Below, in pieces: positions 3,108 to 61,796 of a stretch of DNA of 64,000 nucleotides. Origin of the DNA: Candidatus Falkowbacteria bacterium (lineage in GTDB: Bacteria; Patescibacteriota; Patescibacteriia; Patescibacteriales; WJLG01). The position numbers and the translations under genes were made by a program. Location of the stretch: positions 267,592 through 331,591 of the forward strand of contig CAVVFV010000008.1 of NCBI GenBank assembly GCA_963747695.1, written 5' to 3'. The notes under the pieces were generated by a model that was not told the DNA's origin, made no database searches, and saw only the letters and a list, made by a program, of their open reading frames with translations. How positions within the stretch are numbered: position 1 is the stretch's first letter; each line of letters opens with the position of its first letter.

Positions 3108-4115
3108 ATGGCCACAGATTCCTTGCTAAAAAATAAAATCAACTATCGAGACCCTTCGTTTTTGGCTTTGGTCGGGGATTTTTTAAATTCCGCCGCGGCC
3201 GAAGACGATTCGAAACAGGCACTTAATTTAAGCCGAATCATCGGTAATTTTTTGGCGCGGAAAAAAAGTGAAATGGAGCAAAACCCGGATCTTTATGATT
3301 TTTATCGGAAGGCTCTGATAAAAGCGCAATTCATCGCTTTGCCGCTTTTGGATAACAACGTTGCGATTGATCTACTTAAAAATCATTTCATTACTCAATT
3401 TGAGATCGATTTCTACGATCTACTGGATAAATTCCGCACAAAATTGATCAACATTCCGGTTTACGAGGACCGCGACGCTTTGCGTAGGGAAATCGGGAAA
3501 ATTCTTTTGGATAGCGGCCAACTCTTGACCGGCGGGGCAATGCCGCCGCGGACGGTGGGCGAGTGGATCAAAGATTACAGCGCCAAATTAGGCATTGGCC
3601 GAGCGGATAGCTTGAAAAGAACCCAATATTTTTTGGATCTGGGTCGGGAGAGGAAGCTAAGCGAAAAAGACCAGAGAAAGTTAAAAGCCCTGTTCGATCT
3701 TTATGAGGAGACCAAGATATCCAGTTTAGAACCTTTTGGTTATGATTATGACGTTCCGATAATCGTCGACGGGAAATATTTTATTTTCAAAAGAGGTATT
3801 CTGGAAAAATTAGAAGGCAATGAAAATGAATTTAATCGAATCAACGGGCTATTAAAAACCGGGGAAGAAGAAGCCGCGGCTGCGGCAGGACAAAAGCCGG
3901 CCATTGCTCCTGGCGCGCCGAGGGCCAAGGGAATTCCAGTCTCACCCAGAGGAGTGCCTGCTTCGTCTTCCGCCACCGGTTTCGCGGCGCTTTCGGCGGC
4001 CGATAAGCAAATCGACGATTTAAAACAAACCGCCGCAAAATATCGTCCCGGCAGTCTCCAAAGAAAAGCGGTGGAAGCGGAAATAAAGAAGTTAGAAGGC
4101 AGAAGTCAGAAGTAA
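3108..4115 (+). CDS. hypothetical protein (T4SS-like cluster)
   Basis: 335-aa ORF 19 nt after the previous stop, same strand. Ala/Pro-rich segment near the C-terminus. The last codons (KKLEGRSQK*) are encoded by the heptamer array that follows. Confidence 0.75.
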   Translation: MATDSLLKNKINYRDPSFLALVGDFLNSAAAEDDSKQALNLSRIIGNFLARKKSEMEQNPDLYDFYRKALIKAQFIALPLLDNNVAIDLLKNHFITQFEIDFYDLLDKFRTKLINIPVYEDRDALRREIGKILLDSGQLLTGGAMPPRTVGEWIKDYSAKLGIGRADSLKRTQYFLDLGRERKLSEKDQRKLKALFDLYEETKISSLEPFGYDYDVPIIVDGKYFIFKRGILEKLEGNENEFNRINGLLKTGEEEAAAAAGQKPAIAPGAPRAKGIPVSPRGVPASSSATGFAALSAADKQIDDLKQTAAKYRPGSLQRKAVEAEIKKLEGRSQK

Positions 4116-4147
4116 GAAGCCAGAAGTTAGAAATCAGAAGTTAGAAA
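4088..4147. repeat. left arm of cassette 1: tandem heptamers GAAGNNA (~8.5 units)
   Basis: gaagtta gaaggca gaagtca gaagtaa gaagcca gaagtta gaaatca gaagtta gaaat; reverse-complementary to the CTTCTTA array at 4542-4574. Confidence 0.9.
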
Positions 4148-4166
4148 TATTCAACAATGATTTAAT

Positions 4167-4541
4167 ATGAGGGAGGGAAGTTATCAGGACATTGATCAGA
4201 GGACGTTTAATTTTGCCAATAGGGTTATTAAGATGATTCCGCAATTACCTAACAATGTGACAACTTGGAAAATAGGCGCTCAAGTAATTGATTCGGCCAC
4301 GTCAGTTAATTCTAATATTGTTCAAGCCCGCGGTGGATTATCAAAAAAGGATTTTACGCATCATCTAAGGATTTCTTTGAAAGAAGCGCGGGAAACCAAA
4401 AGATGGCTGGAAATGATCATTGCTGTCGGTTTGGCTCCTGAAGAAAAAATGTGCTGGCTGTTGGCGGAAAACGAAGAAATAATTTGTATTTTGGTTACAA
4501 TGATAAAAAATTCACAAGATGAAAGTTTGAACAAGGAGTAA
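4167..4541 (+). CDS. four-helix-bundle protein (23S rRNA intervening-sequence protein / Avd-like family)
   Basis: 124 aa. Motifs FNFANRVIKM...SATSVNSNIVQARGG.SKKDFTHHLRISLKEARETKRWLEMI are typical of the PF05635/TIGR02436 family as I recall it. No SD upstream. Confidence 0.85.
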   Translation: MREGSYQDIDQRTFNFANRVIKMIPQLPNNVTTWKIGAQVIDSATSVNSNIVQARGGLSKKDFTHHLRISLKEARETKRWLEMIIAVGLAPEEKMCWLLAENEEIICILVTMIKNSQDESLNKE

Positions 4542-4574
4542 TTTCTTACTTCTTACTTCTTACTTCTTACTTCA
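4542..4574. repeat. right arm of cassette 1: tandem heptamers CTTCTTA (~4.5 units)
   Basis: tttctta cttctta cttctta cttctta cttc directly after stop 4539-4541; next gene starts (GTG) at 4578. Confidence 0.9.
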
Positions 4575-4577
4575 ACC

Positions 4578-5396
4578 GTGTTGGAATATTTAGAAAAATT
4601 TAATAATTTGCCTGATGTCGTGAAACAGAAAATTTCCGCGCCGGTGGTAATGGCCGCACTGGAAGAGCTGGAAGGCGAGTACGGCGTGGAACTGGCCGGT
4701 TTCGTGATGCGCGTCATGGTGGGTGATTTGTATTATAAAAATTTGACCGCTAATCTGATCATCGAATATAATTTGGCGCCGGAAGTCGCCGGCAGATTGG
4801 CGCAAGATTTGCAAAATAGAATCTTTGATCAGGTAATGGACTATTTAAGCCAGCCCAAGGCGGCACCGGCTTCCCAATCGGCCGAAGCCGATGCTTCTTT
4901 TTTTGGCAGCCGAGGTACACCGATTCCATCGGCTGTTCCGGCGGCAGCGGCTGTTTTGTCCGTGCCGGGTCCGGCCAAGTCCGCCTACGCTGAAGCCACG
5001 GCGGACAAGCCGGTCCCGCCGGCGGTGCGCCGCGCGCCGGTGACTAACGTAGGAACGCAAAATCTTGCGTTCCTACAAAATAGAAATTATTTGGAAGAAG
5101 ACAAGGCTGACATTACGGCGGCGGGAAAAATATCCACGACGATGAAAGCAGTGCCGCAAGAAAAGGTGGAGGCGATGCTGGCGGCGGTAATTGCGGAAGC
5201 CAAAGTCAGTTTTGCCAGCTCCAGCCTGCTCAAAAGATTTCGGGAAATCCTGCTTTCTTATTTACGCGGCGTGCGGACCAAAGTCGAAGTCCGGGAAAAC
5301 TTGCTGAAAGATTTTGCCTCCGGCGGAGTGAAAATGTCGGAAGCGGAAGCGGATCGGATTTTGAATATCGCCCAAAAGAAATTGAACCGACGATGA
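4578..5396 (+). CDS. hypothetical protein (T4SS-like cluster)
   Basis: 272-aa ORF with a GTG start 3 nt after the repeat arm. Contains an Ala/Pro-rich middle and two embedded perfect or near-perfect hairpins (4982-5010, 5048-5075). Confidence 0.7.
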   Translation: MLEYLEKFNNLPDVVKQKISAPVVMAALEELEGEYGVELAGFVMRVMVGDLYYKNLTANLIIEYNLAPEVAGRLAQDLQNRIFDQVMDYLSQPKAAPASQSAEADASFFGSRGTPIPSAVPAAAAVLSVPGPAKSAYAEATADKPVPPAVRRAPVTNVGTQNLAFLQNRNYLEEDKADITAAGKISTTMKAVPQEKVEAMLAAVIAEAKVSFASSSLLKRFREILLSYLRGVRTKVEVRENLLKDFASGGVKMSEAEADRILNIAQKKLNRR

Positions 5397-6189: not shown

Positions 6190-6221
6190 TCGCATAACGC
6201 ATAGCGCGTAACGCATAACGG
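6190..6221. repeat. left arm of cassette 2: tandem heptamers CGCATAA/CGCGTAA
   Basis: cgcataa cgcatag cgcgtaa cgcataa cgg; reverse complement of 6570-6600 with few mismatches. Confidence 0.92.
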
Positions 6222-6224
6222 TTT

Positions 6225-6569
6225 ATGGATTTTCATGAAGAATTAAAATTGCTTATTCATCAATATGTAAAGTTCGTTTATAGAGTGACAAAAAATTTCC
6301 CCAAGGATGAATTATATGGCGTAGTTTCACAATTCAGAAGAGCCACAATGTCCATAATGTTAAATTACGTCGAAGGTTATGCCAGAAGAACGGGAGATGG
6401 TTGCAAGGTATACAATAATTTTTTAAATATTTCCTATGGATCGCTGAAAGAATCAAAATATTTGTTATTTTTTTCCTTGGATGAAAAATATATTTCAGAA
6501 GAAGAATATAAAACAGGTTTTGAGTTATGTGATAGGATTGGAAAAATGATTTGGAGTTTGATAAATTAG
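6225..6569 (+). CDS. four-helix-bundle protein (23S rRNA IVS protein / Avd-like family)
   Basis: 114 aa; YVKFVYRVTKNFPKDELYGVVSQFRRATMSIMLNYVEGYARRT...SYGSLKESKYLL matches family hallmarks. Confidence 0.85.
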   Translation: MDFHEELKLLIHQYVKFVYRVTKNFPKDELYGVVSQFRRATMSIMLNYVEGYARRTGDGCKVYNNFLNISYGSLKESKYLLFFSLDEKYISEEEYKTGFELCDRIGKMIWSLIN

Positions 6570-6600
6570 CCGTTACGCGTTATGCGTTACGCGTTATGCG
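6570..6600. repeat. right arm of cassette 2: tandem heptamers CGTTACG/CGTTATG
   Basis: ccgttacg cgttatg cgttacg cgttatg cg directly after stop 6567-6569; next ATG at 6607. Confidence 0.92.
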
Positions 6601-6606
6601 AAAACG

Positions 6607-7059
6607 ATGCAGATGTTCACTGTTCCTCAATTCATCGATGTTGAGGATAAAATTATCGGTCCGATTACGACGAGGCAATTCATCATTTGCCTAGTCGGCT
6701 TGGGCTTTCTGGTCCCGGCTTGGAAACTGTTTGATCTGCTCTGGTTCATCCTGTTTGGTTTGCTTGATTTCGTGATCGTCGGCGCCTTCGCCTTTACCAA
6801 GATCAATGGCCGGCCGTTCCATTATTTTGTCTTGAACGTCATCCAGACGATGAAGAAGCCGAATTTGCGGGTTTGGAATAATCGTAATCCGTTGAAAGAC
6901 CTGCTCTCGCAAGAAGAATCGGCCGCCGAGGAAGTGCCGAAGGTGACCAAATCGACCGCCACGAGAGAGCGCCTGGTCAGCTCGCATCTGAAAGAATTAT
7001 CATTGATCGTCGATACCAAAGGGGTCTATAAGGGGGAAGAAGGGGAGGAAATAGTTTGA
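6607..7059 (+). CDS. PrgI/VirB3-like small T4SS membrane protein
   Basis: 150 aa. N-terminal VPQFIDVEDKIIGPITTRQF followed by two TM helices, as I recall for the PrgI family (PF12666). Located upstream of the VirB4-like ATPase. Confidence 0.6.
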   Translation: MQMFTVPQFIDVEDKIIGPITTRQFIICLVGLGFLVPAWKLFDLLWFILFGLLDFVIVGAFAFTKINGRPFHYFVLNVIQTMKKPNLRVWNNRNPLKDLLSQEESAAEEVPKVTKSTATRERLVSSHLKELSLIVDTKGVYKGEEGEEIV

Positions 7060-7094
7060 TTAGTATTAAGTATTTGGTATTAAGTATTTAGTAT
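7060..7094. repeat. left arm of cassette 3: tandem heptamers NAGTATT
   Basis: ttagtatt aagtatt tggtatt aagtatt tagtat, starting 1 nt after stop TGA 7057-7059 and ending at the ATG 7095. Confidence 0.9.
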
Positions 7095-7460
7095 ATGAGT
7101 GAAAAGATCAGGTCGTTCGCTGATTTGGTTGCCTGGCAAGAAGCTCATCGTTTAGTTATCATTATTTATCGAATAACCAACGATTTTCCGAGAGAGGAAA
7201 TTTTCGGATTAACCAATCAAATGAGGCGGGCAGTTATTTCTGTTTCCTCGAATATTGCAGAAGGCTTTGGTCGAGAAACAAATAAAGATAAAAGTCATTT
7301 TTACGTGATGGCCCGAACTTCCGTGGTAGAAATCCAGAATCAATTATTGGCGGCCAGAGATATCGGATATTTGAATCAAAAAAATTTTGATTTTGCCGCC
7401 AATAAGACTATCAAAGTTCATAAATTAATCAACGGACTTATCAAAAAAGTAAAATACTAA
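7095..7460 (+). CDS. four-helix-bundle protein (23S rRNA IVS protein / Avd-like family)
   Basis: 121 aa; LVAWQEAHRLVIIIYRITNDFPREEIFGLTNQMRRAVISVSSNIAEGFGRET...FYVMARTSVVEIQNQL is a textbook family pattern. Confidence 0.88.
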   Translation: MSEKIRSFADLVAWQEAHRLVIIIYRITNDFPREEIFGLTNQMRRAVISVSSNIAEGFGRETNKDKSHFYVMARTSVVEIQNQLLAARDIGYLNQKNFDFAANKTIKVHKLINGLIKKVKY

Positions 7461-7490
7461 ATACTTTATACTAAATACGAAATACTAATC
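7452..7490. repeat. right arm of cassette 3: tandem heptamers AAATACN
   Basis: aaatact aaatact ttatact aaatacg aaatact aatc. Overlaps the last codons and stop of the 4HB gene. The next ATG is at 7492. Confidence 0.9.
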
Positions 7491-7491
7491 T

Positions 7492-8181
7492 ATGGCAGAA
7501 AAGACTAATCAATTAGCCAAAGGGAAAATCAGCGTCTCCACCCAGCAGTATTTGGATATTGCCGAGATCAAGGATGATGTCGTGGTGATGCGCGACGGCA
7601 CTTTGCGGGCCGTGCTTTTGGTTTCCAGCATCAATTTCGCTTTGAAAAGCGAAGACGAGCAGGAAGCGATCGTTTCTTCTTATGTCGGCTTTTTAAATAA
7701 TATCAATTTCCCGGTGCAGATCGTCATCCAGTCGCGTAAGCTGAATATCGAAGGATATCTGGCCGAATTAAAACAAAAAGAAAAAGAACAGCTGAACGAG
7801 CTGTTGAAAATCCAGACTCATGAATATATCGAATATATCCAAGAATTGGTATCGCTCGGAGAAATTATGAGCAAAAGTTTTTATGTCGTCGTGCCGTACA
7901 ATCCTTTATCCGACAAGCATAAAGGTTTCTTTTCTTCGATCAATGAGGTCTTGAAACCGGCGACTTTGGTCAGGATGAAAGGGAAAAGATTTGATCGCTA
8001 CAAGAAAGAACTGGACCGGCGTTTGGAGTCGATCGCCTCCGGTCTTGCCTCGGCCGGGTTGAAAACCGTGCAGCTGGACACCCAAGGTTTGATCGAATTG
8101 TACTATAATACTTATAATCCGGTAACCGCGGAAAATGAAGAATTGACCGAGATGAAGAATTTGCAGATCACCGAACCATAA
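7492..8181 (+). CDS. hypothetical protein, T4SS-cluster associated (possibly a detached VirB4 N-terminal-like module)
   Basis: 229-aa ORF directly upstream of VirB4. The segment IAEIKDDVVVMRDGTLRAVLLVSSINFALKSEDEQEAI resembles the N-terminal region of monoderm VirB4/TraE ATPases from memory. Not verified. Confidence 0.6.
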   Translation: MAEKTNQLAKGKISVSTQQYLDIAEIKDDVVVMRDGTLRAVLLVSSINFALKSEDEQEAIVSSYVGFLNNINFPVQIVIQSRKLNIEGYLAELKQKEKEQLNELLKIQTHEYIEYIQELVSLGEIMSKSFYVVVPYNPLSDKHKGFFSSINEVLKPATLVRMKGKRFDRYKKELDRRLESIASGLASAGLKTVQLDTQGLIELYYNTYNPVTAENEELTEMKNLQITEP

Positions 8182-8274
8182 CGCATAACGCATAACGCAT
8201 AACGCATAACGCATAACGCATAACGCATAACGCATAACGCATAACGCATAACGCATAACGCATAACGCATAACG
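8177..8274. repeat. 14 perfect tandem copies of CATAACG (left arm of an empty stem)
   Basis: Counted unit by unit, 8177-8274. The array begins inside the last codons and stop of the upstream gene. Confidence 0.97.
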
Positions 8275-8337
8275 ATTATGCTTTAACGGGTGTGATAAAG
8301 GGAAAGAAAAATTAATTTGTCAACATAATTTACAGCA

Positions 8338-13233: not shown

Positions 13234-15408
13234 TTATTCCAAATGGATTTTTTCTTCGAAAATTTCCATTTCCTGCTTCAGGGCGGGATTTTTTTTAAGG
13301 TCAGGATCAGAATCAAGCAGCCTGACCGCTTCGGTCCGCGCTTCTTTCATTAATTCATAATCCCAAAGCGTAGCAATCTTCAATTCGGGAAAACCGGATT
13401 GGGCCGTGCCGAAAATTTCTCCTGAACCGCGCAATTTCAAATCCATTTTGGCTAAAGCAAAACCGTCGGAAATCTTTTCCATGGCCGACAACCGCTGCAA
13501 GGTTTTTTGGTCAAAAGAAGACGGGAAGAGAAAACAATATGATTGTTCCGCCCCGCGCCCGACCCGGCCGCGGAATTGGTGCAACTGCGCCAAGCCGAAC
13601 CGATCGGCGCCTTCAATCATCATAATCGTCGCATTGGGAACGTCAACTCCGACTTCGATAACGGAAGTCGAAACTAAGATTTTATATTCATTATTCAAAA
13701 AGCCGCGCATAATTTCTTCTTTGGCTTTGGCTTTAAGCCGTCCGTGCAGGGCGGCCATTTTTATTTCCGGAAAAACCGCTTTATCCAGCTTGAAAAATTC
13801 CTCCTTGACTGATTTTACTCCATAAAGATCCGATTCTTCGATCAGCGGGCAGATGACGAAAGCTTGACGCCCGGCATTTATCTGTTGGCGGATGAAATTA
13901 TAGGCCGCGGCGCGTTTTTCTTCCGGTACGATCCGAGTCATGATCGGCCGGCGGCCGGCCGGCATTTGCTTGATGACGGAAATATCCAGGTCGCCGAACA
14001 AAGCGATGGCAAGCGAGCGGGGAATCGGCGTCGCCGTCATTGATAATAAATGCGGCGTCAAATTACCCCTCCTTTCGAAGGACCCCCCTCCTTTTAAAGG
14101 AGGGGTTGGGGTGGTTTCGGGGGTGGTTCCGCCGGATTTGGTCATTAAAGCCTTCCTTTGCTCAACGCCGAAGCGGTGCTGTTCATCGATCACGGCCAAG
14201 GCCAGATTCTTGAATTTTACATCTTCACCCAATAAGGCATGGGTGCCGATGACGATATCGATTTCTCCCGCCTTGATCATTTTCAAAATTTCCGCTCGTG
14301 AAATTTTTTTGTCATCCTGAGCGGAGGCCGCCTCGGCCGGAGTCGAAGGACCGCTTAAGGTCGAATTTAATAAACGATAGTTATTTGTCAGTAAGGCGAT
14401 GCGCAGAGGGAAATTCCCTAATAATTTGCTAATCGTATTAAAATGCTGCTGCGCCAGAATTTCTGTCGGCGCCATCAGCACGCCCTGCTTATTATTCAAA
14501 GCGGCATTTAACAAGGCGATCACTGCCACCACAGTCTTTCCCGATCCCACATCGCCGTTCAAGAGGCGCGACATTGGCCGGGATTTGGCCAGATCGCCCA
14601 AGATCGCCCAGGCGGCTTGCCGCTGATCTTCGGTCAATTTGAACGGCAATCCGGCGACGAATTCTTTGGTATCTTTTTCCTTGAATTCAATGGTTTCCGC
14701 CCGCGCCAAATCGCGGTCTTTTTTTACCAATTGCGATTTCAATTGGAGCAAAAATAATTCGTCAAAAGCCAGCCGGCGGCGCGCCGCTTCGACATCAGCC
14801 CATTTTTGCGGAAAATGGATCAAACGCACCGCTTCCTCCAGTGTCAACAGATTAAGCCTGGTTCTGATCTCTAGGGGTACGGCATCGGACAGATTTTTGC
14901 TTTGGTCGATAATCTGGCTGATCAAAAATCGCAATTGTTTTTGAGTGATTTTCTCGGTCAGATGATAATTAGGCACCAGGCCGGCCGTGTGGATCAGCTT
15001 GCCGTAATTGACTTTTTCATAAACCGGCGAAGCCATCGTCAAGACTCCCTGATCTTCGGCGCGGCCGGCCAGCGAAACCGTATCGCCGACCCGCAAAGTT
15101 TTGCCGATGAACGGCTGGTTGAACCAGATGACTTTCAGCGTTTCCGTGCCGTCATTGACGAGCGCTTCGGTAATATTCATCCGGCGGTGATGGGCGCGGC
15201 GGTTTTCAATCAATTCGATCTGGCCGACGACATTGGCGGCCAGGCCGGCTTGTAAATCTTTGATCTTGGTCAGATGCGTAAAATCATCATAGCGATAAGG
15301 AAAATACCAAAGCAGATCTTCGACATAGTTGAGATCGATTGACGCCAGGCGTTTGCTGATACTGGCGCCCACGCCTTTGAGTTGGGTTAGGGGAGTGGAT
15401 AGTTCCAT
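13234..15408 (-). CDS. recG: ATP-dependent DNA helicase RecG
   Basis: 724 aa; GDVGSGKT, DEQHRFG, MTATPIPR, QLHQFRGRVGRG motifs. Contains two in-frame insertions derived from palindromic repeats (see findings). Confidence 0.93.
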   Translation of the reverse strand: MELSTPLTQLKGVGASISKRLASIDLNYVEDLLWYFPYRYDDFTHLTKIKDLQAGLAANVVGQIELIENRRAHHRRMNITEALVNDGTETLKVIWFNQPFIGKTLRVGDTVSLAGRAEDQGVLTMASPVYEKVNYGKLIHTAGLVPNYHLTEKITQKQLRFLISQIIDQSKNLSDAVPLEIRTRLNLLTLEEAVRLIHFPQKWADVEAARRRLAFDELFLLQLKSQLVKKDRDLARAETIEFKEKDTKEFVAGLPFKLTEDQRQAAWAILGDLAKSRPMSRLLNGDVGSGKTVVAVIALLNAALNNKQGVLMAPTEILAQQHFNTISKLLGNFPLRIALLTNNYRLLNSTLSGPSTPAEAASAQDDKKISRAEILKMIKAGEIDIVIGTHALLGEDVKFKNLALAVIDEQHRFGVEQRKALMTKSGGTTPETTPTPPLKGGGSFERRGNLTPHLLSMTATPIPRSLAIALFGDLDISVIKQMPAGRRPIMTRIVPEEKRAAAYNFIRQQINAGRQAFVICPLIEESDLYGVKSVKEEFFKLDKAVFPEIKMAALHGRLKAKAKEEIMRGFLNNEYKILVSTSVIEVGVDVPNATIMMIEGADRFGLAQLHQFRGRVGRGAEQSYCFLFPSSFDQKTLQRLSAMEKISDGFALAKMDLKLRGSGEIFGTAQSGFPELKIATLWDYELMKEARTEAVRLLDSDPDLKKNPALKQEMEIFEEKIHLE

Positions 15409-16577: not shown

Positions 16578-16805
16578 GGCAATATCCTTTTTTGGGGTGT
16601 TTAAAGGGCATTCTAAGTTTCCACCTAAAATACCATAAATACTAAAATAAATCAATAGATAGTTGCGCTTAATGGGCTTAGCCCCAAAAATGTGTATCTA
16701 ACGGCCAAAAAGTGATATAATTTGATAGTTAGAAGCGATAATGCCGGCGATAAAATTAAACCATCAGCGCGGTGATTTTATCGTCAGATTAATCAATAAT
16801 AATTG

Positions 16806-19800
16806 ATGAAAAATAATTTCGGATCATTTTTGTTTTCTCGCGAACATAAATTTTTTAACAAAAAATTATTCTTCGTTGTCGCTGCCGCTATGATTTTATC
16901 CGGCGGCTTTTTTGTGGCTCCCGCTCAAGCTACTCCTCCCGGTCTCCCTTTAGGCTTTTATGGGACTGGTAACGCTCCGAATTCCGTAGTCGCGGCCGAT
17001 TTTAATAATGATACCTTTTCTGATTTTGCGGAGACAAATTACAGCGATGACGATGTTTCAGTCTTCATAAACGACCAAAATGGAATTTTTGCTTCCCGCG
17101 TAAATTATCCAGTCGGGGAACAGCCCTGGTCGGTGGTTGCCGCGGATTTCAATAAGGACGGAAAGATTGATTTAGCCACGGCAAATTTCGTGGGCAATAA
17201 TATTTCGGTGCTTATGGGGAATGGCGATGGCACTTTTGTTTCGGCGGTGGATTATCCTGTTCTCTACGCTCCCGATTCAATCATCACAGCAGATTTTAAC
17301 GGCGATGGCTATCCTGATCTGGCGGTCACCACTTATTCCAGCAATCAATTATACATTTTACTTAATAACGGCGATGGCACTTTTACGGTTTCGAATATTT
17401 ATGACACGGGCATTACTCCCTGGTATCTTGCCACGGGCGATTTTGACGGCGACGGCCACGCCGATCTGGCATTGATAAATCGCTCGGATGGCAGTTTTTC
17501 AATTTTTCTTGGCGCGGGCGACGGAACTTTCGGTCCGCCGATAACTTCTGATTTGGGAGAAGCCGGGAGAGGGATCTTTACTTATGATTTCAATGGCGAC
17601 GGTAAGGACGATTTGGCTATCGGCAGTTTTAATGACGGCTATATTTCAATTTATTTGAGTACTGGCAGCGGTAATTTCGCTTCGCCAATGGCTTACAGTG
17701 TCGGCTCGGGCAATCAGGCGATCGTCGGAGGAGATTTTAACAATGATGGATTCCTGGATTTGGCCACGGCTAATTGGAATGATAATGATATTTCCGTCAT
17801 CCTGGGTAGCGGCGGAGGAAATTTTGGCGACGCTACGAATTATTCAGTCACCGTTGATCCGGCAGCGATCACTGCGGCCGATTTTGATAACGACGGCCAG
17901 AAGGATTTAGTAGAGGTGAACCAGGACTCAAATACCGCCGATGTTTTTTTTAATACCGACGGTGTTTTTAACATTATCGGGCCGGCGCCGATCGTTTATC
18001 CGATTACCAATTGCCAAGACTTGCAGGACATTGATTCGCTGATCAATGATAATCCAGACGCTGCCTACGCAGATTTTGAAATCGTTACTTCTTCCCCGAC
18101 TATTGATTGCGGCGCGGTAAACGGCACCGGAATTTTTGCGCCGATCAGTAATTCTTTTTATGGCACTCTGAACGGCAATAACATTAAGATTACCAATTTT
18201 AATATCAGCGACGATAGCGATGTTAGTGTCGGACTGTTTGGCGATCTGGAAAGCGGCGCCACGATAGAAAATTTGACTTTGTCCGGCGGCGATGTTTCCT
18301 CAGCTAACGGGGGCAATATCGGCGTTCTGGCCGGCTATGCCTATGGCAATGTGACAATTCAAAATGTCACCAGCACGGTTTCCACTTTAACCGGAGATGA
18401 TGAATTGGCAGTCGGCGGCTTAATCGGATATTACGAAGATGATGATATCGGACCAGGACTTATTTTAAATAACGTTAAATTGTCGACGAATATTTCCGCC
18501 GAAAATAATGGACAAGATGTCGGCGGGCTGATCGGCGATTTTGAACTTGATGGAAGCTCGGCGGCTACCATAACAGGCTGCAATTTTTCCGGCAACATCG
18601 ACAGTGTTGGCAGCCAAATCACCGGAGGCTTGATCGGATATATTGGTTCTGTAGCTCAAGACGCAATTTCAATCGTTAATAGTTCGGTTAGCAGTGACAC
18701 ATTATCAGGTAGTGGCAATACCGGTGGGTTGATCGGAAGTTATTATTTTGAAGGTGATCCGAAATTAACGATCACTAAAAGTTATTTTTCCGGCGGTCAG
18801 GTTAGCGGCGTTTTCAATGTCGGTGGCTTACTGGGTTCTTTCGAGAATAATTCCCAGGATTATTCGCAAATCGACATCATTAGTCAAAGCTATTCCACCG
18901 GACAAATTTTCGGGAGCGACTTTGCCGTCGGCGGTTTAATCGGAGAATTGGTCGACGATGAACAATGTGGAACCGGCACTGATTGTCCCGGCGGATTGAT
19001 AATTTCAAAAAGCTATTACAAAGGTTACAACATCACCGGCCTAAATGGTTACGTGGGCGGATTGGTGGGGCGAATGGCGGATGGAAATTTTTCCATTGCC
19101 GACTCTTATTCCTCGGGCGTGATTGCCAGTGCTGGTGATGATACCGGCGGTTTGGTAGGCGACATGCAAAGCTATATGCCGATTATGTCGATTGACCGAT
19201 CTTATGCCTCTGGCACGGTTTGGGGTGACGATAATTATAACGGTGGACTCGTGGGCTATTTGGAAAACGACAGTACCTTAACTAACTCTTTCAGCACGAG
19301 CGATGCTAATCACGGCACCAATACTGTTGGCGGGTTAGTCGGCTATGCCGATAATGAGAATAATCTGGTCAACGATTATTGGTTTGATTCTCAGGACAAT
19401 GGAACGGGTGATGGATTGGAAAACAGCATCGCCGGCCATTTTGTCAAAGCTGATTCGGCCGAGTCTTTCCAAAATAACAGCACTACTCCGCCGCTTAATC
19501 AGTGGAATTTTTCCGATCCTAATCCGATTTGGCTATCTCAAGCAGCGGATTACCCTGCCTTTAACCCCGATTATGTTTCCACCACCACTGTCCATACACT
19601 CAATTATTCCGCTGGTACCGGTGGATCAATAGCCGGTGGTTCGGGGCAATATGTTTTCGCCGGCGCCGACGGAGCGGCCGTGACCGCCGTGCCTAATTCG
19701 GGTTATGAATTCGTTAATTGGGACGATGATTCGACGGATAACCCCAGAACCGACACTAATGTTACCGATGATATTTCGGTCACCGCCAATTTTTCCTTCG

Positions 19801-22800
19801 TTCAGCAAATCACCAGCTGCCAAGATTTGCAGGACATTGATTCGCTGATCAATGATAATCCGGACGCTGCCTACGGAGATTTCGAAATCGCCACTGATAC
19901 TATTATCGATTGCAGTGATGTTAATGGAACGGGAGTTTTTGCGCCGATAATGAACCAGTTCTACGGTACGCTGAACGGCAACGGCGTTAAGATCACCAAT
20001 TTTAATATCAGCGATGATAGCTATGGAAATGTCGGCCTGTTTGCGAATCTGGAAAGCGGCGCGACCATCAAGAATTTAAGCTTGTCTGGCGATGCGATTT
20101 CTTCCGGTTCTGGCGGCAATGATGGAATTTTGGCTGGATATGCCAATGGCAATATAACCATTGAAAATGTTACCAGCACCGTTTCCGATTTATCAGCAGA
20201 TTATGCTTACGAGGCTGGAGGGCTGATCGGATTCTATGAAGATGATGGCGGATCAACCCTGATTATCAGCAACGTTCACTTGTCTACTGCCATTTCCTCC
20301 ATTGTTAATAACGATCAAGACGTTGGCGGGCTGATCGGTTATATTGAAAGCTCTGGCGATGGAGAATATTCTATTACGGACAGCGATTTTTCCGGCAGCA
20401 TCAGCGCCGCTGGCAGCGAATCGGCCGGTGGTTTGATCGGCTGGGTCGAGGGCGATGGGAATGATAATTTTTCGATTGCCACCAGTTCCGCCAGCGGCGA
20501 GATTGAGGGAGGTGATGACGACGGTAATGCCGGCACCGGCGGCTTGATTGGCTATTATAATATGGAGGGAGATGCGGCATTAACAATCTCCCAAAGCCAT
20601 TATTCCGGCAGCCAGATCAGCGATGGCGACGGCGACAGCTACAATGATTCCGTGGGTGGTTTACTGGGAATTTTCGACAATGAGTCCAGTGATTATTCCC
20701 AGCCCAATATTATTGATCACAGTTATTCGAGCGGAAGTATCAATTCTTTCGGTGATAATAATTTTGTCGGCGGTTTGATCGGGCAATTATATAATTCGGG
20801 AAATTGCGGCGGTGATTGTTCCGGCAGCTTTGCCATAACCGACAGCTATTCCAGCGGCGATGTCACCGGCGATCCAAACGATTCGGACGGATTCGTGGGC
20901 GGCCTGGTCGGAGCAGTCGGGAGCAATTACATAAATGAAAATTTTTCCGTGGCCTCTTCTTCGGTGTTCGGCGCGGTCAGCGGCGGCTATGAAGTTGGCG
21001 GCTTGGTCGGATTTGCCTATGGCAGTGTCAGTCTGCAAAATATCACCAGCAGCGCTCCCACTGTATCCGGGGATAATGATTCCTATGGAATCGGCGGGTT
21101 GGTCGGAGAATATTATAATGATGATCCAGGAATCGGACTTAGTCTGGACGGCGTCCACGTTTCTTCGATTATTTCTGGAGATGATAGCGGCAACAGCCCT
21201 GATGTCGGCGGCCTGGTCGGTTATTTTTACAGCGATGGCGGCGCGGAAAATTCCATTAGCGGTGGCGGTTTTTCCGGCAGTATTAGCAATAATGCGGATG
21301 GCGATAGCACCGGCGGCGTGTTCGGCTATCTGGAAGCCGATAGCAATGAAAATATTTCGTTCAGCAATGTCAATGTCAGCGGTGACATATTATCAGGCAG
21401 TGCCGACACCGGCGGCCTGATCGGCTATTATTATTTTACCGGAGATCCTAAATTATCCATCCTTAACAGCCGTTTTTCCGGCAGCGAGATCAATGGCGGA
21501 ACCGATCTCGGCGGCCTATTGGGTTTTTTTGAAAATGGTTCCGCGGCATATTCGCAGATTGATGTCATCAGTCAGAGCTATTCGACCGGGGCGATAAATT
21601 CGAGTGGCTACAATGCCGGCGGCTTAATTGGCGAATTACAGGATGATGGATATTGCGGTACTGCCTGTTTAGGCGGTCTGATCATCTCGGAAAGTTATGC
21701 TTCGGGCGATGTTAATGCGGCCAGCGATTCGGCCGGCGGTCTGGTGGGAGGAATGCTTAGCGGAAATTTTTCCCTGGTAAATTCTTACGCCTCGGGTAAT
21801 GTCAGCGGCGGCAACTTTGTCGGCGGCTTAGTCGGCAATATGGCTCCGAATTTACCGGTAATGTCGGTTGTTCGATCGTATTTTTCCGGCTCGGTTACCG
21901 GAGACGGTTCTTATGTCGGCGGTTTGGTCGGATATTTGGAGGGATCGAGCGTTTTATCCAATTCTTTTAATGTCGGTGAAGTTAGCAACAGCGATATCGA
22001 TGGCGGCTTAGTTGGCAATGCGGACAACGAAAATAATCTCACCAATGATTATTGGTATAACTCCCTTGATAATGGCATTGGCAACGGCGCTGAAGATACG
22101 AGCGACGGACATTTCGTCAAAGCCGACTCGGCCGAGTCTTTTCAGGGTAACAGCGCTAATCCTCCGCTTGATCAATGGGATTTTTCCAGCGGCAACCCGA
22201 TCTGGTCGGTCCAAGCCGGGGAATACCCCGCCTTTAATCCCGACCATACTTCTTCCGCCACCGCTTATCTACTGCAATATTCTTCGGGCGGCAACGGCAC
22301 GATCAGCGGCAGCGCGAATCAATTTGCCATTTCCGCCTCTGACGGCACCCCGGTTACCGCCATACCGGACGATGGTTATGTTTTCGTGAATTGGAGCGAT
22401 AACTCGACAGCCAATCCCAGAACGGACACCGCCGTGAGCGGCGATATTTCCGTCACCGCCAATTTTTATTTTGATCCTTTCCAGGAGATTACTACCTGTC
22501 AGGAATTGCAAGATATCGATTCGCAGATCAACGATAATATGGACGCCGCTTTTGATTATTATCAGATTGCCACTTCTTCCACTCTTGATTGCAGCACGGT
22601 AAATGGTACAGGAATTTTTGCCCCGATCAATAATACTTTTTACGGCACGCTGGATGGCAACGGCGCGAAGATCATCAATCTTAATTTTGCCGATGACGAC
22701 AGCGCCAGCGTCGGGATCTTCAGCGATCTGGGCGACGGAGCCGCGGTAAAGAACATCAGCTTGTCCGGCGTTTCTCAATCGGTTAATGCCACCTATATCG

Positions 22801-25800
22801 GCGCCATTGCCGGAGTGGCCACCGGTAATATCACCATCCAAAATGTTACCAGCACGGTTTCTAATTTGACCGGCGAAGAAGTCGGCGGTTTGATCGGCGA
22901 TTATGAATATAATACCGAAGAATCGGATTCCGGGGCGGGATTTTCAATGGATAACGTCCACGTTTCTTCGGATATTTTAGTCGATGGCAGCGACGCCGGA
23001 GGTTTGATCGGCGATTTTGATAGCGCCGGAACAGTCCAGCATTCCATCACGAATAGCGGTTTTTCGGGGAATTTCAGCGGTAGCAACGGTTCTTACGTCG
23101 GCGGTCTCATCGCTGTAATTTCGAGTGACTACCAAGATAATTTTCTGATTGATAATTGTTCCTCGACCGGTGACATATTGGCACCGAGTTATCAGGCGGG
23201 CGGTTTGATCGGCGGTTTTTACACCGGCGATGATTCCCAATTGACGATTTCGCACAGCCATTTTTCGGGAAGCGAGATCGATGGCGCCGGTCCAACCGGC
23301 GGCATATTGGGCTATGCCGAAAATGATTCCTCTAATCCGACCAGGATCAGCGTCATCAGCCAGAGTTATTCCCAAGGAACCATAAATTCCACTGCCGGCG
23401 ACGCGGGCGGATTGATTGGTGAAATAGTTGGCTCAGTCAACTGCGGCGATTCCTGCATAAGCGGTTTTGTCATTTCGAATAGTTATTCCTCGGCCGACGT
23501 CAACGCGGTTGATAGCGATCTGGCCGGCGGTTTGGTCGGCGAAATGAATGGTCCGAATGCGGCAATTATGAATTCATATGCCTCGGGCAATGTTACCGGC
23601 GGTAGCTACATCGGCGGTTTGGTGGGCGATATGTATCAGACTTTACCGGTGATGTCGGTTAACCGGTCATATTTTTCCGGATCAGTGACGGGCGACGGCA
23701 GTTTTGTCGGCGGCCTGGTCGGCGATTTGGAAGGCACGAGCGTCCTGGCTAATTCTTTCAATGTCGGAGAAATTAGCAGTAGCGGCATACCCGGAGCTTT
23801 AGCAGGCAGCGCTGATGACGAAAATAATCTTATCAATGATTATTGGTTCGATTCTTTGGCTAACGGCGTCGGCAATGGCGCCGAAGACACCAGCCCCGGC
23901 CATTTTATCAAAGTCGATTCGGCTGATTCTTTTCAGAATAACGACACTAATCCGCCGCTTGATAAATGGAATTTCTCCGGACTAAATCCGAATTGGGTTT
24001 CAGCCGACGGGCTTTATCCCGCTCTCAACCCCGACCATAATTCCAACACCAGCGTTTACGTTCTTCAATATTCCGCCGGCTCTAACGGATCAATAACCGG
24101 CGCTGCCACCCAATTTGTTTTATCCGGAACCGATGGAATCGCCGTTACGGCCGTGCCCGATGATGGTTATCGTTTTGTGAACTGGAGCGATGATTCAACT
24201 GATAATCCCCGGACTGACACTAATGTCACTCAAGATATCTCGGTTACCGCTAATTTTGAACTTAATTCAGTTATTCAATATACTTTAACCTACACCGCCG
24301 GAGATAACGGTTCGATCGATGGCGATTCGCCCCAAACGGTGGATTCGGGGGCTGACGGTACGCCGGTCACCGCTGCACCGGCTGACGGTTATCATTTTGT
24401 GAATTGGAGCGATGATTCAACTGATAATCCCCGGGCTGATCTGGCTGTTACTCATGACATTTCGGTTACCGCCAATTTCTCGGCTAACGCAGTGACTCAA
24501 TATACTTTAACCTACAGTGCCGGCGATAACGGTTCGATCGATGGCGACTCGCCGCAGACCGTGGATTCCGGTTCGAATGGCACGGCCGTGACCGCGGTGC
24601 CGGCTACCGGTTATCATTTTGTCGATTGGAGCGATGCCTCGACCACCAATCCGCGGACTGATTATAACGTTACCCAAGATATTTCCGTCACCGCTAATTT
24701 TGCCATCGATACTTACACACTGACCTATACGGCCGGCGCCAACGGTTCGATTGACGGTGATTCGCCGCAGACGGTAGCTTACGGCGCTGATGGCACCGCG
24801 GTCATTCCTACTGCCGACGATGGTTATCATTTTGTAAACTGGAGTGATAATTCGACCGATAATCCTCGAACTGACACCGGAATCACCGGAGATATTTCGG
24901 TTACCGCTAATTTTGCCGCCGACTTGGCCGGTCAATTTACTTTGGCTTATGCCGCCGGAGCCAATGGCTCCCTTACCGGCAGTTCGACTCAAATAGTTAA
25001 TTCCGGCGCCGACGGAACAGCGGTAACCGCCGAACCGGATAGCGGCTATCATTTTGTGAATTGGAGCGACAACTCGACCGATAATCCTCGAACTGATCTG
25101 GCAGTGGGGGGAGATATTTTCGTTACGGCTAATTTCGCGGCTAATCCAGCCACCCAATATACTTTGACTTATTTTGCCGGGGCTCACGGCTCGATAACGG
25201 GAAGCTCAACGCAGATTGTCGCTCCCAGTTCCAACGGAACAGCCGTAACTGCTGAACCGGATAGTGGTTATCATTTTGTCGATTGGAGCGATGCCTCGAC
25301 CACCAATCCGCGGACTGATTACAATATCATTCAAGATATTTCCGTTACCGCCAACTTCGCGGCTAATCCGGTTACTCAATATACCTTAACTTACTCAGCC
25401 GGAGCGCACGGTACAATCACGGGTAGCAGTCCTCAAAACGTGAATTCCGGTTCAGATGGTACGGCGGTCACGGCTGTGCCGAATTCCGGCTATCGATTTG
25501 TCAATTGGAGCGATAATTCTACGGTTAATCCGAGAACCGATCGAAATGTTTCCGGCGATATTTCAGTTACTGCGACTTTTGAAATTATTCCCGCTCAATC
25601 TGGCGGCGGCGGAGGCGGCAGTGCACCAATTTCCATCCCGGCTTGTTCGGCGGTCGTCTACGGTAATTGGGGAAGCTGCGTCAACGGCCTTCAATATCGG
25701 GATATTTTAAGCCAGTCTTCGGCCAACTGCCCGTTAACACCCGCCCAGCAGGCAGCCCGATCAATGGTTTGCGGCATTGTTCCGACTACCCCGATCGTTA

Positions 25801-48991: not shown

Positions 48992-49117
48992 GTCATCCCG
49001 AAGCGGCTCGCGAGGGATCTGTCTCAGCGGATTTCAATATTCATCGAATAATCCTATGATCTCCGTTAATCTCGCTTGGATTGAAAGAGATTCCTGGCGA
49101 GCCGCTTCAGAATGACT
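48992..49117. mobile_element. 126-bp MITE-like element with ~29-bp terminal inverted repeats (GTCATCCCGAAGCGGCTCGCGAGGGATCT)
   Basis: The left end and the reverse complement of the right end match at 25/29 positions. Sits between two SRPBCC paralogs. Confidence 0.75.
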
Positions 49118-53622: not shown

Positions 53623-53697
53623 CGGCTTTGAATTTCAAATTGATCTTCACACACCCCGCCTCGCAGGGCTCGGCACCCCTCTCGAGAGGGGAATATT

Positions 53698-54120
53698 ATG
53701 AAATCACTTCAAAAACAATACGATGAATTGTCTTACTATACGCTGGAGAAGCGCGACCCGGAATTCATCCATCAATATATCGTGGATGCTTTTGCGGCCC
53801 AGACAGCCGATGCCAAAACCAAGCCGATCACTTTGGCGTTCGCGCTGATCGGGCTTTATCTGCATCTGGAAAAGGATTACACTGGAAAGGAAGTCCAGCA
53901 GGCGCATATGGTTTTGGGCAAGACGAAAAAAGCCTGGCCGAAATTCGAATTGCCTGTCGAGCGCGGCGACTTTACCGTGGTCGATGTCCTGGCCGCTCCC
54001 TTCGGTGCGCCCCGCGACGAGGCCATTAATAAATGGTCACAATCAGTTTGGCAAGCATATAAAAACGTGCATCAGCCAGTAAAATATTTAATGGAAAAGG
54101 AGCTTCTGAAAAAATATTAA
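53698..54120 (+). CDS. hypothetical protein
   Basis: 140-aa ORF preceded by a perfect 16-nt palindrome, cccctctcgagagggg (53676-53691). Confidence 0.7.
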   Translation: MKSLQKQYDELSYYTLEKRDPEFIHQYIVDAFAAQTADAKTKPITLAFALIGLYLHLEKDYTGKEVQQAHMVLGKTKKAWPKFELPVERGDFTVVDVLAAPFGAPRDEAINKWSQSVWQAYKNVHQPVKYLMEKELLKKY

Positions 54121-61768: not shown

Positions 61769-61796
61769 AGATCCCTCGCTAAACGCTCGGGATGAC
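61769..61796. repeat. solo right-end copy of the GTCATCCC... repeat family
   Basis: agatccctcgctaaacgctcgggatgac, ending 17 nt before the helicase ATG and abutting its AAGGAGG. Confidence 0.65.

Follow-up and report, generated by a model that had tools for sequence, protein, structure and literature searches.

The recG gene of a Patescibacteria (CPR) bacterium raises the question of how palindromic repeats come to stand inside the reading frame of a conserved helicase, and of whether they are inserted elements, functional sequences or products of local duplication. The window analysed here is a 64-kb stretch of a 331-kb contig from this host, whose relatives also carry the name Patescibacteria. 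A sequence-only reading of the window had proposed that repeat elements colonised surface loops of RecG at two places, which are referred to below as site A and site B.

Results

The recG product is a RecG helicase, with the wedge, the SF2 core motifs and the C-terminal RecG domain (Pfam domains RecG_wedge, DEAD, Helicase_C and RecG_dom3_C). Motifs I (GDVGSGKT), II (DEQH) and III (TATPIPR) are present, and their residues are invariant in the homolog alignment. The RecG structure 1gm5 is the top solved-structure match by sequence (phmmer, E 1e-143), and 1gm5_A is the top Foldseek match for the AlphaFold model of the protein (E 2e-46, TM 0.69). The translation contains ...KSGGTTPETTPTPPLKGGGSFERRGNLTPHLLSMTATPIPR... 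and ...SGPSTPAEAASAQDDKK... and, as had been proposed, the inserts leave the frame unbroken, with every helicase motif retained. Coordinates of the gene, the inserts and the related repeats are collected in Table 1.

Table 1. Positions of recG, its inserts and related repeats in the 64-kb window
Feature	Position	Strand	Description
recG CDS	13234..15408	(-)	724 aa, intact ORF; host of both inserts
Site A insert	14062..14130	(-)	codons G427-N449 (GTTPETTPTPPLKGGGSFERRGN); delimited by DNA comparison with empty and filled relatives
Partial second arm of site A	14066..14082		CCCCTCCTT-TCG-AAGGA: the CCCCTCCTTT arm repeated in direct orientation, with a 5-bp hairpin
Core hairpin of site A	14085..14105		perfect 10+1+10 palindrome CCCCTCCTTT-T-AAAGGAGGGG
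Two AACCACCCC boxes	14108..14128	coding strand (-)	conserved upstream box of the site A family
Site B insert	14311..14353	(+), antisense to recG	full-length GTCATCC-family element; encodes G353-D366 (GPSTPAEAASAQDD)
Degenerate GTCATCC-family inverted pair	48992..49116	arms 48992-49020 (+), 49088-49116 (-)	intergenic; forms a long hairpin
Palindrome CCCCTC-TCGA-GAGGGG	53676..53691		intergenic, 6 nt upstream of the ATG at 53698
Degenerate GTCATCC-family copy	61769..61796	(-)	intergenic; R1 22.3 bits, E 2e-4

Site B lies after the LLTN strand and before the helix leading into IGTHAL. The insert is composed of a head (GTCATCCTGAGCGGAG), a central hairpin (GGCCG-CCT-CGGCC) and a tail (GGAGTCGAAGGACCG). 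The sequence GTCATCCTGAGCGGAGGCCGCCTCGGCCGGAGTCGAAGGAC is present at 14311-14351 as described earlier, but the element does not end there and runs on to 14353. It belongs to an unnamed family, defined here as the GTCATCC hairpin family by a head GTCATCCTGAGCG(R)AG, a variable central hairpin and a tail (S)AGTCGAAGGAYC. A covariance model (R1) was built from 40 copies in other organisms and phyla, none of them in recG, and cmsearch with this model recovered site B at 59.4 bits (E 4.4e-15) over model positions 1-43 of 43; thus, site B is a family member over its full length. It also carries the commonest family variants, GAG after the head and GGAG before the tail.

At least 150 copies of the family were recovered, spread over 120 or more genome contigs. 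Its ends, GTCATCCTGAGCG and AGTCGAAGGAC, are conserved across phyla around a variable hairpin showing 13-18 compensatory changes per pair, and the predicted structure consists of an outer stem, a tandem G-A motif and the variable hairpin. This RNA structure would not form in the recG mRNA, because site B is antisense to the gene. Family copies sit amid housekeeping genes, and no linked protein other than these recurred among 536 clustered neighbouring ORFs. Another in-frame insertion was found in a glycosyltransferase (locus L059); counts of copies embedded in ORFs were set aside for GC-rich loci of Acidobacteriota, where long ORFs often arise spuriously. The element is absent from Rfam 15. 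An Rfam scan of the window at gathering thresholds returned three tRNAs only and no family over either insert, and a scan of eight family-bearing loci (E<=0.1) likewise gave no family match over the two elements. The idea of a hammerhead-like ribozyme in CUGAGCG...GUCGAA was rejected, as it misfits the core consensus on inspection by hand and has no Rfam ribozyme match.

Site A is located between motif II (DEQHRFG) and motif III (TATPIPR), where 23 residues stand in place of three in relatives (net +60 nt, 20 aa); the closest relatives have KSG-HxD-LTPH only. An excess of roughly 20 residues over the canonical spacing of E. coli RecG had been proposed; the figure holds against the nearest relatives, and aligning the protein with RecG of E. 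coli and T. maritima also opens a gap here. The DNA comparison (P0011 and P0017 left aside) used the empty sites of L001, L003 and L004 and the homologous filled site of L002, and revealed that the empty-site GGC CAY NCN GAT TTG gives way to a 69-nt block in the window. The motif tcctt-tcg-aagga (14070-14082) and the adjoining perfect palindrome are present as described, but the element is larger than these palindromes and includes two boxes, which read GGGGTGGTT on the plus strand (14108-14116 and 14120-14128). The palindrome is one of nine perfect hairpins (stem >=9, loop <=6) in the window, compared with 0-6 in 20 Markov simulations. It has no second exact copy within the 64 kb; signs of more than one copy in this genome come from the site B family alone, in the form of degenerate copies.

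Elsewhere, the 22-mer palindrome of site A (as ACCCCTCCTTNNAAAGGAGGGG) occurs in at least 120 metagenome contigs, mostly with the same box upstream. We define these copies as a ACCACCCC-box / CCCCTCCTT hairpin family, also unnamed, in which a palindrome ACCCCTCCTT-NN-AAAGGAGGGG follows an ACC[AT]CCC box. Site A conforms to the definition, having the exact 22-mer and two copies of the box (the one also written ACCACCCC), located on the coding strand at 1 and 13 nt upstream of it. The ACC[AT]CCC box lies no more than 50 nt upstream in 81 of 126 metagenomic 22-mer copies, and 33 of these 81 show the short spacing seen in recG. About 100 of 133 site-A-type copies fall outside long ORFs, and L192 provides another in-frame case.

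An alignment of 120 CPR RecG homologs bears out the claim that the two segments are lineage-specific insertions rather than conserved RecG sequence. Site A is empty in the closest relative (P0002, 85% identity), and neither insert is present in P0017 and P0019-P0021. Insertions of at least 5 aa were found in 85 homologs at site B, in 50 at site A and in 33 after residue 134, a loop in the wedge domain that forms a third hot spot; no other position has them in more than four homologs. All insert-bearing homologs keep the frame and are free of stops, although database proteins are skewed to intact ORFs, so frame-breaking insertions would go unseen. The suggestion that the inserts fall in loops agrees with the AlphaFold model (mean pLDDT 83), where both coincide with low-confidence stretches flanked by well-predicted core: pLDDT is below 50 at residues 428-447 (site A) and 354-356 (site B), and the mean for site B is 49 over residues 351-360 and 59 over 361-370.

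The two carriers of the site A element, P0001 and P0004, were exclusive sisters in none of 100 bootstrap replicates. The smallest clade containing both also holds the empty-site proteins P0002, P0003, P0006, P0008 and P0009 (94-100 of 100 replicates), and the junctions differ between the two carriers. On this evidence, the element was gained at least twice, or transferred.

At site B, 43-44 of 45 nt are identical among the window, L001 and L003, and none of the 12 shared codons has changed synonymously, whereas elsewhere in the gene the four-fold sites are 43-59% identical (binomial P 2e-4 to 5e-4). This is not what a purely neutral passenger loop predicts. The element is decayed in L004 (30/45 nt) and replaced in other close relatives. 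In folding energy, the inserts do no better than shuffles of matched composition (as DNA, z -1.55 and -0.61; as RNA, -0.65 and -0.13); thermodynamic stability was therefore dropped as evidence, and the case rests on symmetry and family membership.

Within the window, GTCATCC copies other than site B do occur between genes, as the sequence-only reading had stated, but they are short and degenerate (22 and 18 bits versus 59 for the recG copy). The arms of the inverted pair score 17.7 and 7.6 bits with R1, and the pair folds as DNA at -27.5 kcal/mol (z -4.24). The minus-strand copy immediately precedes the ribosome-binding site and start codon (ATG) of an ORF starting at 61814. The degenerate head GTCATYCYGA occurs five times in the window, against about 0.5 expected by chance according to our estimate. 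A GTCATTCCGA head at 47377, which lies within an ORF, was rejected as a family member because the covariance model does not recognise it. The intergenic palindrome upstream of 53698, which had been considered related to site A, exists, but it is kin to site A in hairpin type only and differs in sequence.

In other genomes, inverted palindromes of the site A type also bound small cassettes that encode DUF559 endonucleases: in L218, L239 and L242, DUF559 ORFs lie between inverted copies, and truncated versions occur elsewhere. In some lineages, a whole PD-(D/E)XK (GxxExxY) domain occupies site A of RecG; in P0057 and six others it is a PDDEXK_3 domain flanked by ATGCGGAC / GTCCGCAT inverted units.

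Discussion

We propose, with a probability of roughly 0.8, that the inserts are two non-autonomous palindromic repeats of two different widespread families, inserted into recG at residue-tolerant places. In-frame colonisation of RecG loops is supported by the family matches, the empty sites, the low-pLDDT loops and the intact ORF. Both elements would have landed where RecG accepts extra residues and would be translated into flexible loops on the surface of a RecG that is otherwise normal; their translation is inferred from frame conservation, because the frame is kept with no stop codon. Site A, site B and one wedge loop appear to be the places where CPR RecG insertions survive, which would explain why unrelated hairpin elements and the GxxExxY domain share positions across lineages.

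The insertion mechanism we infer is more tentative. The short elements may be relatives of nuclease-associated hairpin cassettes, or derivatives of them that lack the ORF, because the DUF559 cassettes end in site-A-type palindromes and the GxxExxY domain at site A is flanked by inverted repeats; they could have spread by break-and-repair or by gene conversion from other copies.

Could the inserts instead be retained for a function, at the DNA or RNA level or as a new protein surface? Such retention, which is compatible with the insertion of repeats, might take the form of a nucleotide-constrained structure, a ribosome pause between the helicase-domain halves or an internal start giving a C-terminal RecG fragment. 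The near-identity of site B in the window, L001 and L003 without synonymous change speaks for it, as do the cross-phylum conservation of the GTCATCC head and tail and the predicted structure with its tandem G-A motif. Site A contributes two Shine-Dalgarno-like AAAGGAGGGG motifs, the second 6 nt before an in-frame TTG at L450. However, the homologous L002 insert has neither the TTG nor a strong Shine-Dalgarno motif, the decay and replacement of site B in close relatives and its antisense orientation fit poorly with a function, and gene conversion from other copies would likewise hold the sequence near consensus. A promoter and terminator scan detected no promoter-like or terminator-like site at either insert. 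We therefore regard retained function as unlikely.

Ordinary lineage-specific loop growth, through replication slippage or the local duplication of low-complexity stretches, would account for the internal direct repeats of site A (AACCACCCC, CCCCTCCTTT and AAAGGAGGGG, each twice) and for the variable length of both loops across many homologs. It would leave unexplained the full-length 59-bit match of site B to a model from unrelated genomes, the 22-mer with upstream box in at least 120 unrelated contigs and the presence of a homologous element at this site in a lineage that is not sister. This explanation is very improbable and already largely refuted by the family matches, which are not all RecG orthologs. 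Still less credible is removal of the inserts, as an intron, an intein or a hairpin bypassed in translation, to restore canonical RecG loop lengths. Stable hairpins do serve bypass elements such as those of T4 gene 60 and yeast mitochondria, and no finding here points to removal: at 43-69 nt the inserts are far below intein or known intron size, they match no Rfam family, they are in frame and stop-free in all homologs that bear them, and a take-off/landing codon pair is absent. As repeats are typical misassembly sites in metagenome-assembled genomes, chimeric joins or sequencing errors might also be suspected. The chance of such an artefact is negligible, given that a separate Logan assembly (run ERR11748453) matches the window over 2375 nt without difference, both inserts included, and that other samples show the same site B insert (L001, L003) and a homologous site A insert (L002).

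A wider and more doubtful reading is that hairpin-bounded selfish cassettes, and hairpin derivatives of them that lack an ORF, land repeatedly in the two RecG loops, and that the GTCATCC element is a structured element shared across phyla and nucleotide-constrained even within a coding sequence. The cassettes would carry GxxExxY or DUF559 PD-(D/E)XK nucleases, or 23S_rRNA_IVP genes, and would form a broad class so far undescribed. Their spread may be nuclease-driven and homing-like, with the insert left in frame and not spliced out.

If the inserts are palindromic repeats at residue-tolerant places, as we prefer, the closest known case would be that of the Rickettsia palindromic elements (RPEs). 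These were reportedly found by Ogata et al. in 2000 in frame inside conserved protein-coding genes. RPEs are palindromic repeats found between genes or in frame within conserved ones; in the latter case they are translated as part of the host protein, presumably at spots that its fold tolerates (PMC10969869). The recG inserts likewise lie in frame within a conserved gene whose ORF stays open. In contrast to RPEs, which are about 100-150 bp long and known only from Rickettsia, they are 43 and 69 nt long and occur in a Patescibacteria (CPR) bacterium; length and host set them apart from RPEs. They also belong to families that span many phyla and have conserved end motifs around a variable hairpin, and different families have hit two loops of one protein repeatedly.

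With REP/BIME sequences and MITEs (Correia, ERIC, Nezha, QMITE1), the elements have in common that they are short, hairpin-forming, non-autonomous, probably multi-copy and mostly intergenic. RAYT-associated REPs have a 5' GTAG next to an imperfect palindrome, are extragenic and occur in genomes with a RAYT gene, whereas the recG elements have no GTAG head and are intragenic here. MITEs are characterised by terminal inverted repeats, a target-site duplication and a related autonomous element encoding a transposase. The recG elements are inverted-repeat in character, but no target-site duplication was found at the junctions of either element, no parent transposase was seen, and neither element could be linked to a transposase or nuclease gene in the window; their longer relatives carry DUF559 or GxxExxY PD-(D/E)XK (PDDEXK_3) nuclease ORFs, not transposases. 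For MITEs, occasional in-frame gene fusions are known (PMC10969869).

Elements with homing endonucleases (inteins, group I introns) resemble the present case in that one conserved site of an essential gene for DNA metabolism is occupied repeatedly, and in the nuclease-fold ORF (GxxExxY) found at site A in some lineages, for which nuclease activity and homing are putative. The recG inserts differ in having no splicing apparatus or ORF of their own and in staying in the protein. Inteins and self-splicing introns possess a splicing domain or a catalytic RNA structure and are hundreds of nucleotides long; the recG inserts encode just 14 and 23 aa.

Palindromic repeats that colonise conserved genes in frame are best known from Rickettsia; their range would thus extend to the Candidate Phyla Radiation, with element families that are common to many phyla and usually intergenic. 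The two widespread families are not in Rfam and were not found in the literature searched: searches on the 13-mer, CPR palindromic in-frame insertions, GxxExxY, and DUF559 with inverted repeats returned nothing relevant. The tie of one family to small nuclease cassettes offers a route to how hairpin elements move. Three RecG loops accommodate additions of between 5 and more than 130 residues, which is useful for modelling, tagging and engineering of RecG, and annotation pipelines would be helped by an explanation for odd low-complexity peptides (AQDDK, TPPLKGGG, QPSPCKGEG).

The hairpin-flanked 23S_rRNA_IVP (four-helix-bundle) mini-genes have in common with the recG inserts that they are present in the same window, and heptamer-repeat peptides of that kind occur at site A of RecG in other lineages. 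They differ in belonging to other sequence families and in being, within the window, free-standing genes and not in-frame inserts. The window holds three 23S_rRNA_IVP genes, each with inverted short-repeat arrays on either side.

Two lineage-specific insertions in recG

The recG gene encodes a RecG protein with wedge, DEAD, Helicase_C and RecG C-terminal domains (Pfam), whose top match by sequence among solved structures is Thermotoga maritima RecG (1gm5, E 1e-143) and whose closest database proteins carry the label Patescibacteria RecG. Inspection of the sequence and the ORF confirmed the palindromes and the GTCATCC string, together with their translations, as described in the sequence-only reading. 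The sequence, both inserts included, is the same over 2375 nt in an independent Logan assembly of run ERR11748453, which, together with related contigs from other samples, excludes an assembly artefact.

In an alignment of 120 RecG homologs, site A (between helicase motifs II and III) is empty in P0002, the closest relative (85% identity), and in most of the next fifteen, which read KSG-H/R-x-D/S-LTPHLL, and the window protein has KSG-GTTPETTPTPPLKGGGSFERRGN-LTPHLL. At the DNA level, a 69-nt block replaces the empty-site GGC CAY NCN GAT TTG (net +60 nt). The 14 additional residues of site B are absent in the homologs P0017 and P0019-P0021, where LLTNxYxL runs directly into the helix before IGTHAL. 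Gaps also open at both sites in alignments with E. coli and T. maritima RecG. Based on these gaps and the empty sites, both segments are lineage-specific insertions and not conserved RecG sequence, as had been proposed; the site A element is larger than first reported.

The AlphaFold model of the window RecG (112 homologs, mean pLDDT 83, pTM 0.76) has RecG 1gm5_A as its top structural match (E 2e-46, TM 0.69). Its pLDDT falls below 50 at residues 428-447 (site A), 354-356 (site B) and 663-671, with means of 49 and 59 for the site B blocks 351-360 and 361-370. Site A is flanked by a helix after motif II (415-424) and a strand leading into motif III (453-458), and site B by the LLTN strand and helix 371-380. 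Given the low pLDDT and this placement, both inserts are predicted to be loops between well-predicted core elements.

Across the 120 homologs, insertions of 5 aa or more concentrate at three loops: site B (85 homologs), site A (50) and a wedge-domain loop after residue 134 (33); no other position has more than four. The additional residues in the wedge-domain loop number 5-26, and the window protein has none there. Many unrelated kinds of inserted peptide occur (e.g. QPSPCKGEG, THPSRGGDF, NRKSQIENRKSQ, IMNNGE...FIIHNS), each resembling a translation of palindromic or heptamer-repeat DNA; one case, site A of locus L246 from another assembly, was confirmed at the DNA level (CCCTCTCCTT-TAAA-AGGAGAGGG). 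Together, the alignment, the family matches described below and the model support the proposal that repeats have colonised RecG loops without breaking the frame. A GC-rich palindrome at 13944-13963 (TCGGCCGGCGGCCGGCCGG), found in the terminator-like scan only, lies within conserved recG codons (MPAGRRPI) and seems to belong to the native coding sequence rather than to an insert.

Hairpin families of the inserts

Scanning one genome per species with the pattern GTCATCCTGAGCG-N8-38-TCGAAGGA revealed at least 150 copies of the GTCATCC family in at least 120 contigs, with hosts among the matches listed including Acidobacteriota, Eremiobacterota, Verrucomicrobiota, Patescibacteria, Firmicutes, Actinobacteria and others. 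These elements have a constant head GTCATCCTGAGCG(R)AG, a central hairpin varying in sequence and length, and a constant tail (S)AGTCGAAGGAYC; in 114 of the 150 copies listed the central region folds with at least 4 bp. In the structure that RNAalifold predicted from 40 copies, UCCU pairs with AGGA in an outer stem; the further parts are a tandem G-A internal loop, a short GC stem and the variable hairpin, where each pair has 13-18 compensatory changes. R1, a covariance model built from the same 40 copies (none from recG), matched the site B element over all 43 positions (59.4 bits, E 4.4e-15). No matching family was found in Rfam 15, nor any discussion of the 13-mer of this family in the searchable literature. 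Copies among the matches listed usually sit between housekeeping genes, and no recurring protein family was found among their neighbours. The degenerate window copy at 48992-49020 pairs with an inverted arm at 49088-49116, the joint fold being a long hairpin (z -4.24). A Patescibacteria contig carries an inverted pair in frame in a glycosyltransferase, with the translations SVILSEV...KDL and DPSTSLHSAQDD. Between genes, CPR copies of this family seem usually to be paired; the recG copy is a single arm. Within 8 kb of a Komeilibacteria contig there are three inverted pairs in convergent orientation, 15-28 nt apart.

The coding strand of site A reads AACCACCCC-CGA-AACCACCCC-A-ACCCCTCCTTTAAAAGGAGGGG-GG-TCCTTCGAAAGGAGGGG. 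Searching metagenomes for ACCCCTCCTTNNAAAGGAGGGG identified at least 133 copies of this palindrome type in at least 120 contigs (GC 0.28 to 0.69 among the matches listed). An ACC[AT]CCC box lies at most 50 nt upstream in 81 of 126 copies listed; 33 of these 81 have the short recG-like spacing, and the others a small additional hairpin between. About 100 of the 133 copies listed are outside long ORFs and a few are clearly in frame in proteins, such as the copy read as TNLTTPQPLLEKEGGF within a 511-aa ORF (L192). The 64-kb window has no second copy of the exact site A palindrome. The palindrome at 53676, previously described as related, is indeed intergenic and of the same type, but differs in sequence.

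Coordinates of features in the window and in other loci and homologs
Feature	Location	Strand	Remark
recG	13234-15408	minus	724-aa RecG ORF
Site A insert	14062-14130		palindrome and boxes
Site B insert	14311-14353		GTCATCC family, antisense to recG
Palindrome CCCCTC-TCGA-GAGGGG	53676		6 nt before start codon
Degenerate GTCATCC-family copy	61769-61796		intergenic, R1 22.3 bits
Degenerate GTCATCC-family copy	48992-49020		intergenic, R1 17.7 bits
23S_rRNA_IVP (four-helix-bundle) genes	4167-4541, 6225-6569, 7095-7460		Pfam E 5e-18 to 3e-34
Glycosyltransferase-like ORF	L059 5269-6402	minus	inverted GTCATCC pair, R1 44.8 and 39.6 bits
GTCATCC-family inverted pairs	L020 1118-1208, 3178-3292, 6568-6636
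DUF559 ORFs between inverted ACCCCTCCTTCAAAAGGAGGGG copies	L218 1157-1733; L239 229-808; L242 487-1066
RecG homologs with PDDEXK_3 at site A	P0057, P0058, P0068, P0072, P0076, P0110, P0116		826-873 aa

History of the inserts and alternative explanations

The homolog P0004 (locus L002) has a homologous element at site A with 53 of 69 nt identical and different junctions. The two carriers of this element, P0001 and P0004, are exclusive sisters in none of 100 bootstrap trees, and in 94-100 replicates their smallest common clade includes the empty-site P0002, P0003, P0006, P0008 and P0009. SGHxxLT, the ancestral motif, is found at the empty sites as well as in deeper relatives, so two gains or a lateral transfer are more likely than several precise losses. 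The site B element is common to the window and loci L001 and L003 (43-44 of 45 nt identical, shared codons without synonymous change), whereas 4-fold degenerate sites elsewhere in these recG genes are only 43-59% identical (binomial P 2e-4 to 5e-4) and divergence returns immediately outside the element. This pattern would fit constraint on the nucleotide sequence, or gene conversion from other copies that homogenises the element. The L004 copy has decayed (30/45 nt) and is interrupted by other hairpin elements.

Slippage could be invoked for both segments, but does not account for full-length matches to families in unrelated genomes. Against splicing or bypass of the inserts stand their small size, the lack of an Rfam match and the frame kept in all homologs. 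A functional role would agree with the conservation of site B and with two Shine-Dalgarno-like motifs in site A, the second of which (AAAGGAGGGG on the recG mRNA, within 14062-14082 of the window) precedes an in-frame TTG (L450) by 6 nt, as a ribosome-binding site would precede its start codon. However, L002 and L004 do not conserve these features, the L002 insert in particular lacking the AAAGGAGGGG-TTG arrangement, and our scan placed no promoter-like or terminator-like sites at the inserts.

Nuclease domains and hairpin-bounded cassettes

Seven of the 120 homologs have a complete PD-(D/E)XK domain (Pfam PDDEXK_3, 'GxxExxY') in frame at site A, flanked in L245 (1030-3576) by inverted arrays of ATGCGGAC / GTCCGCAT units. 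In P0085, a short HKSAL remnant occupies the place of this domain. In the metagenome hits, inverted site-A-type palindromes (ACCCCTCCTTCAAAAGGAGGGG) also bracket small ORFs for DUF559 endonucleases (126-137 aa, Pfam E 1e-32 to 5e-34); loci L227, L161, L138, L157 and L193 are shorter, with the same ends and the ORF truncated or missing. In L232, such a pair brackets a PemK-like toxin gene. Each 23S_rRNA_IVP gene of the window lies between inverted repeats (loci 4086-4582, 6190-6601 and 7058-7490), two of the three made of heptamer units (AGAAGTN, CATAACG), and these loci look like hairpin-bounded mini-cassettes between larger genes. The bracketing of DUF559 ORFs and 23S_rRNA_IVP genes suggests that the short hairpins may be relatives or remnants of such mini-cassettes, some encoding nucleases. 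The recG inserts showed no target-site duplication, and neither a transposase nor a linked nuclease was found for them.

Rickettsia palindromic elements are a known case of such in-frame repeats (PMC10969869) and the same kind of phenomenon. In contrast to these, the recG inserts are in a different host phylum, are much shorter, belong to families common to several phyla, use the same RecG loops repeatedly and include a family linked to nuclease cassettes.

A perfect 12+4+12 palindrome at 5049-5076 (GTAGGAACGCAAAATCTTGCGTTCCTAC), read in frame as …VGTQNLAFLQNRNY… within ORF 4578-5396, may be a further hairpin insertion. The repeats at 6566-6600 have their complement in a tandem array of about 14 copies of CATAACG (8163-8295). 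The direct-repeat families of the window are dominated by a highly repetitive 3213-aa ORF (16803-26444) with FG-GAP-like DFNxDG repeats, GGLIG repeats and modules of about 74 aa, together with a second region of paralogous repeats at about 28500-33000.
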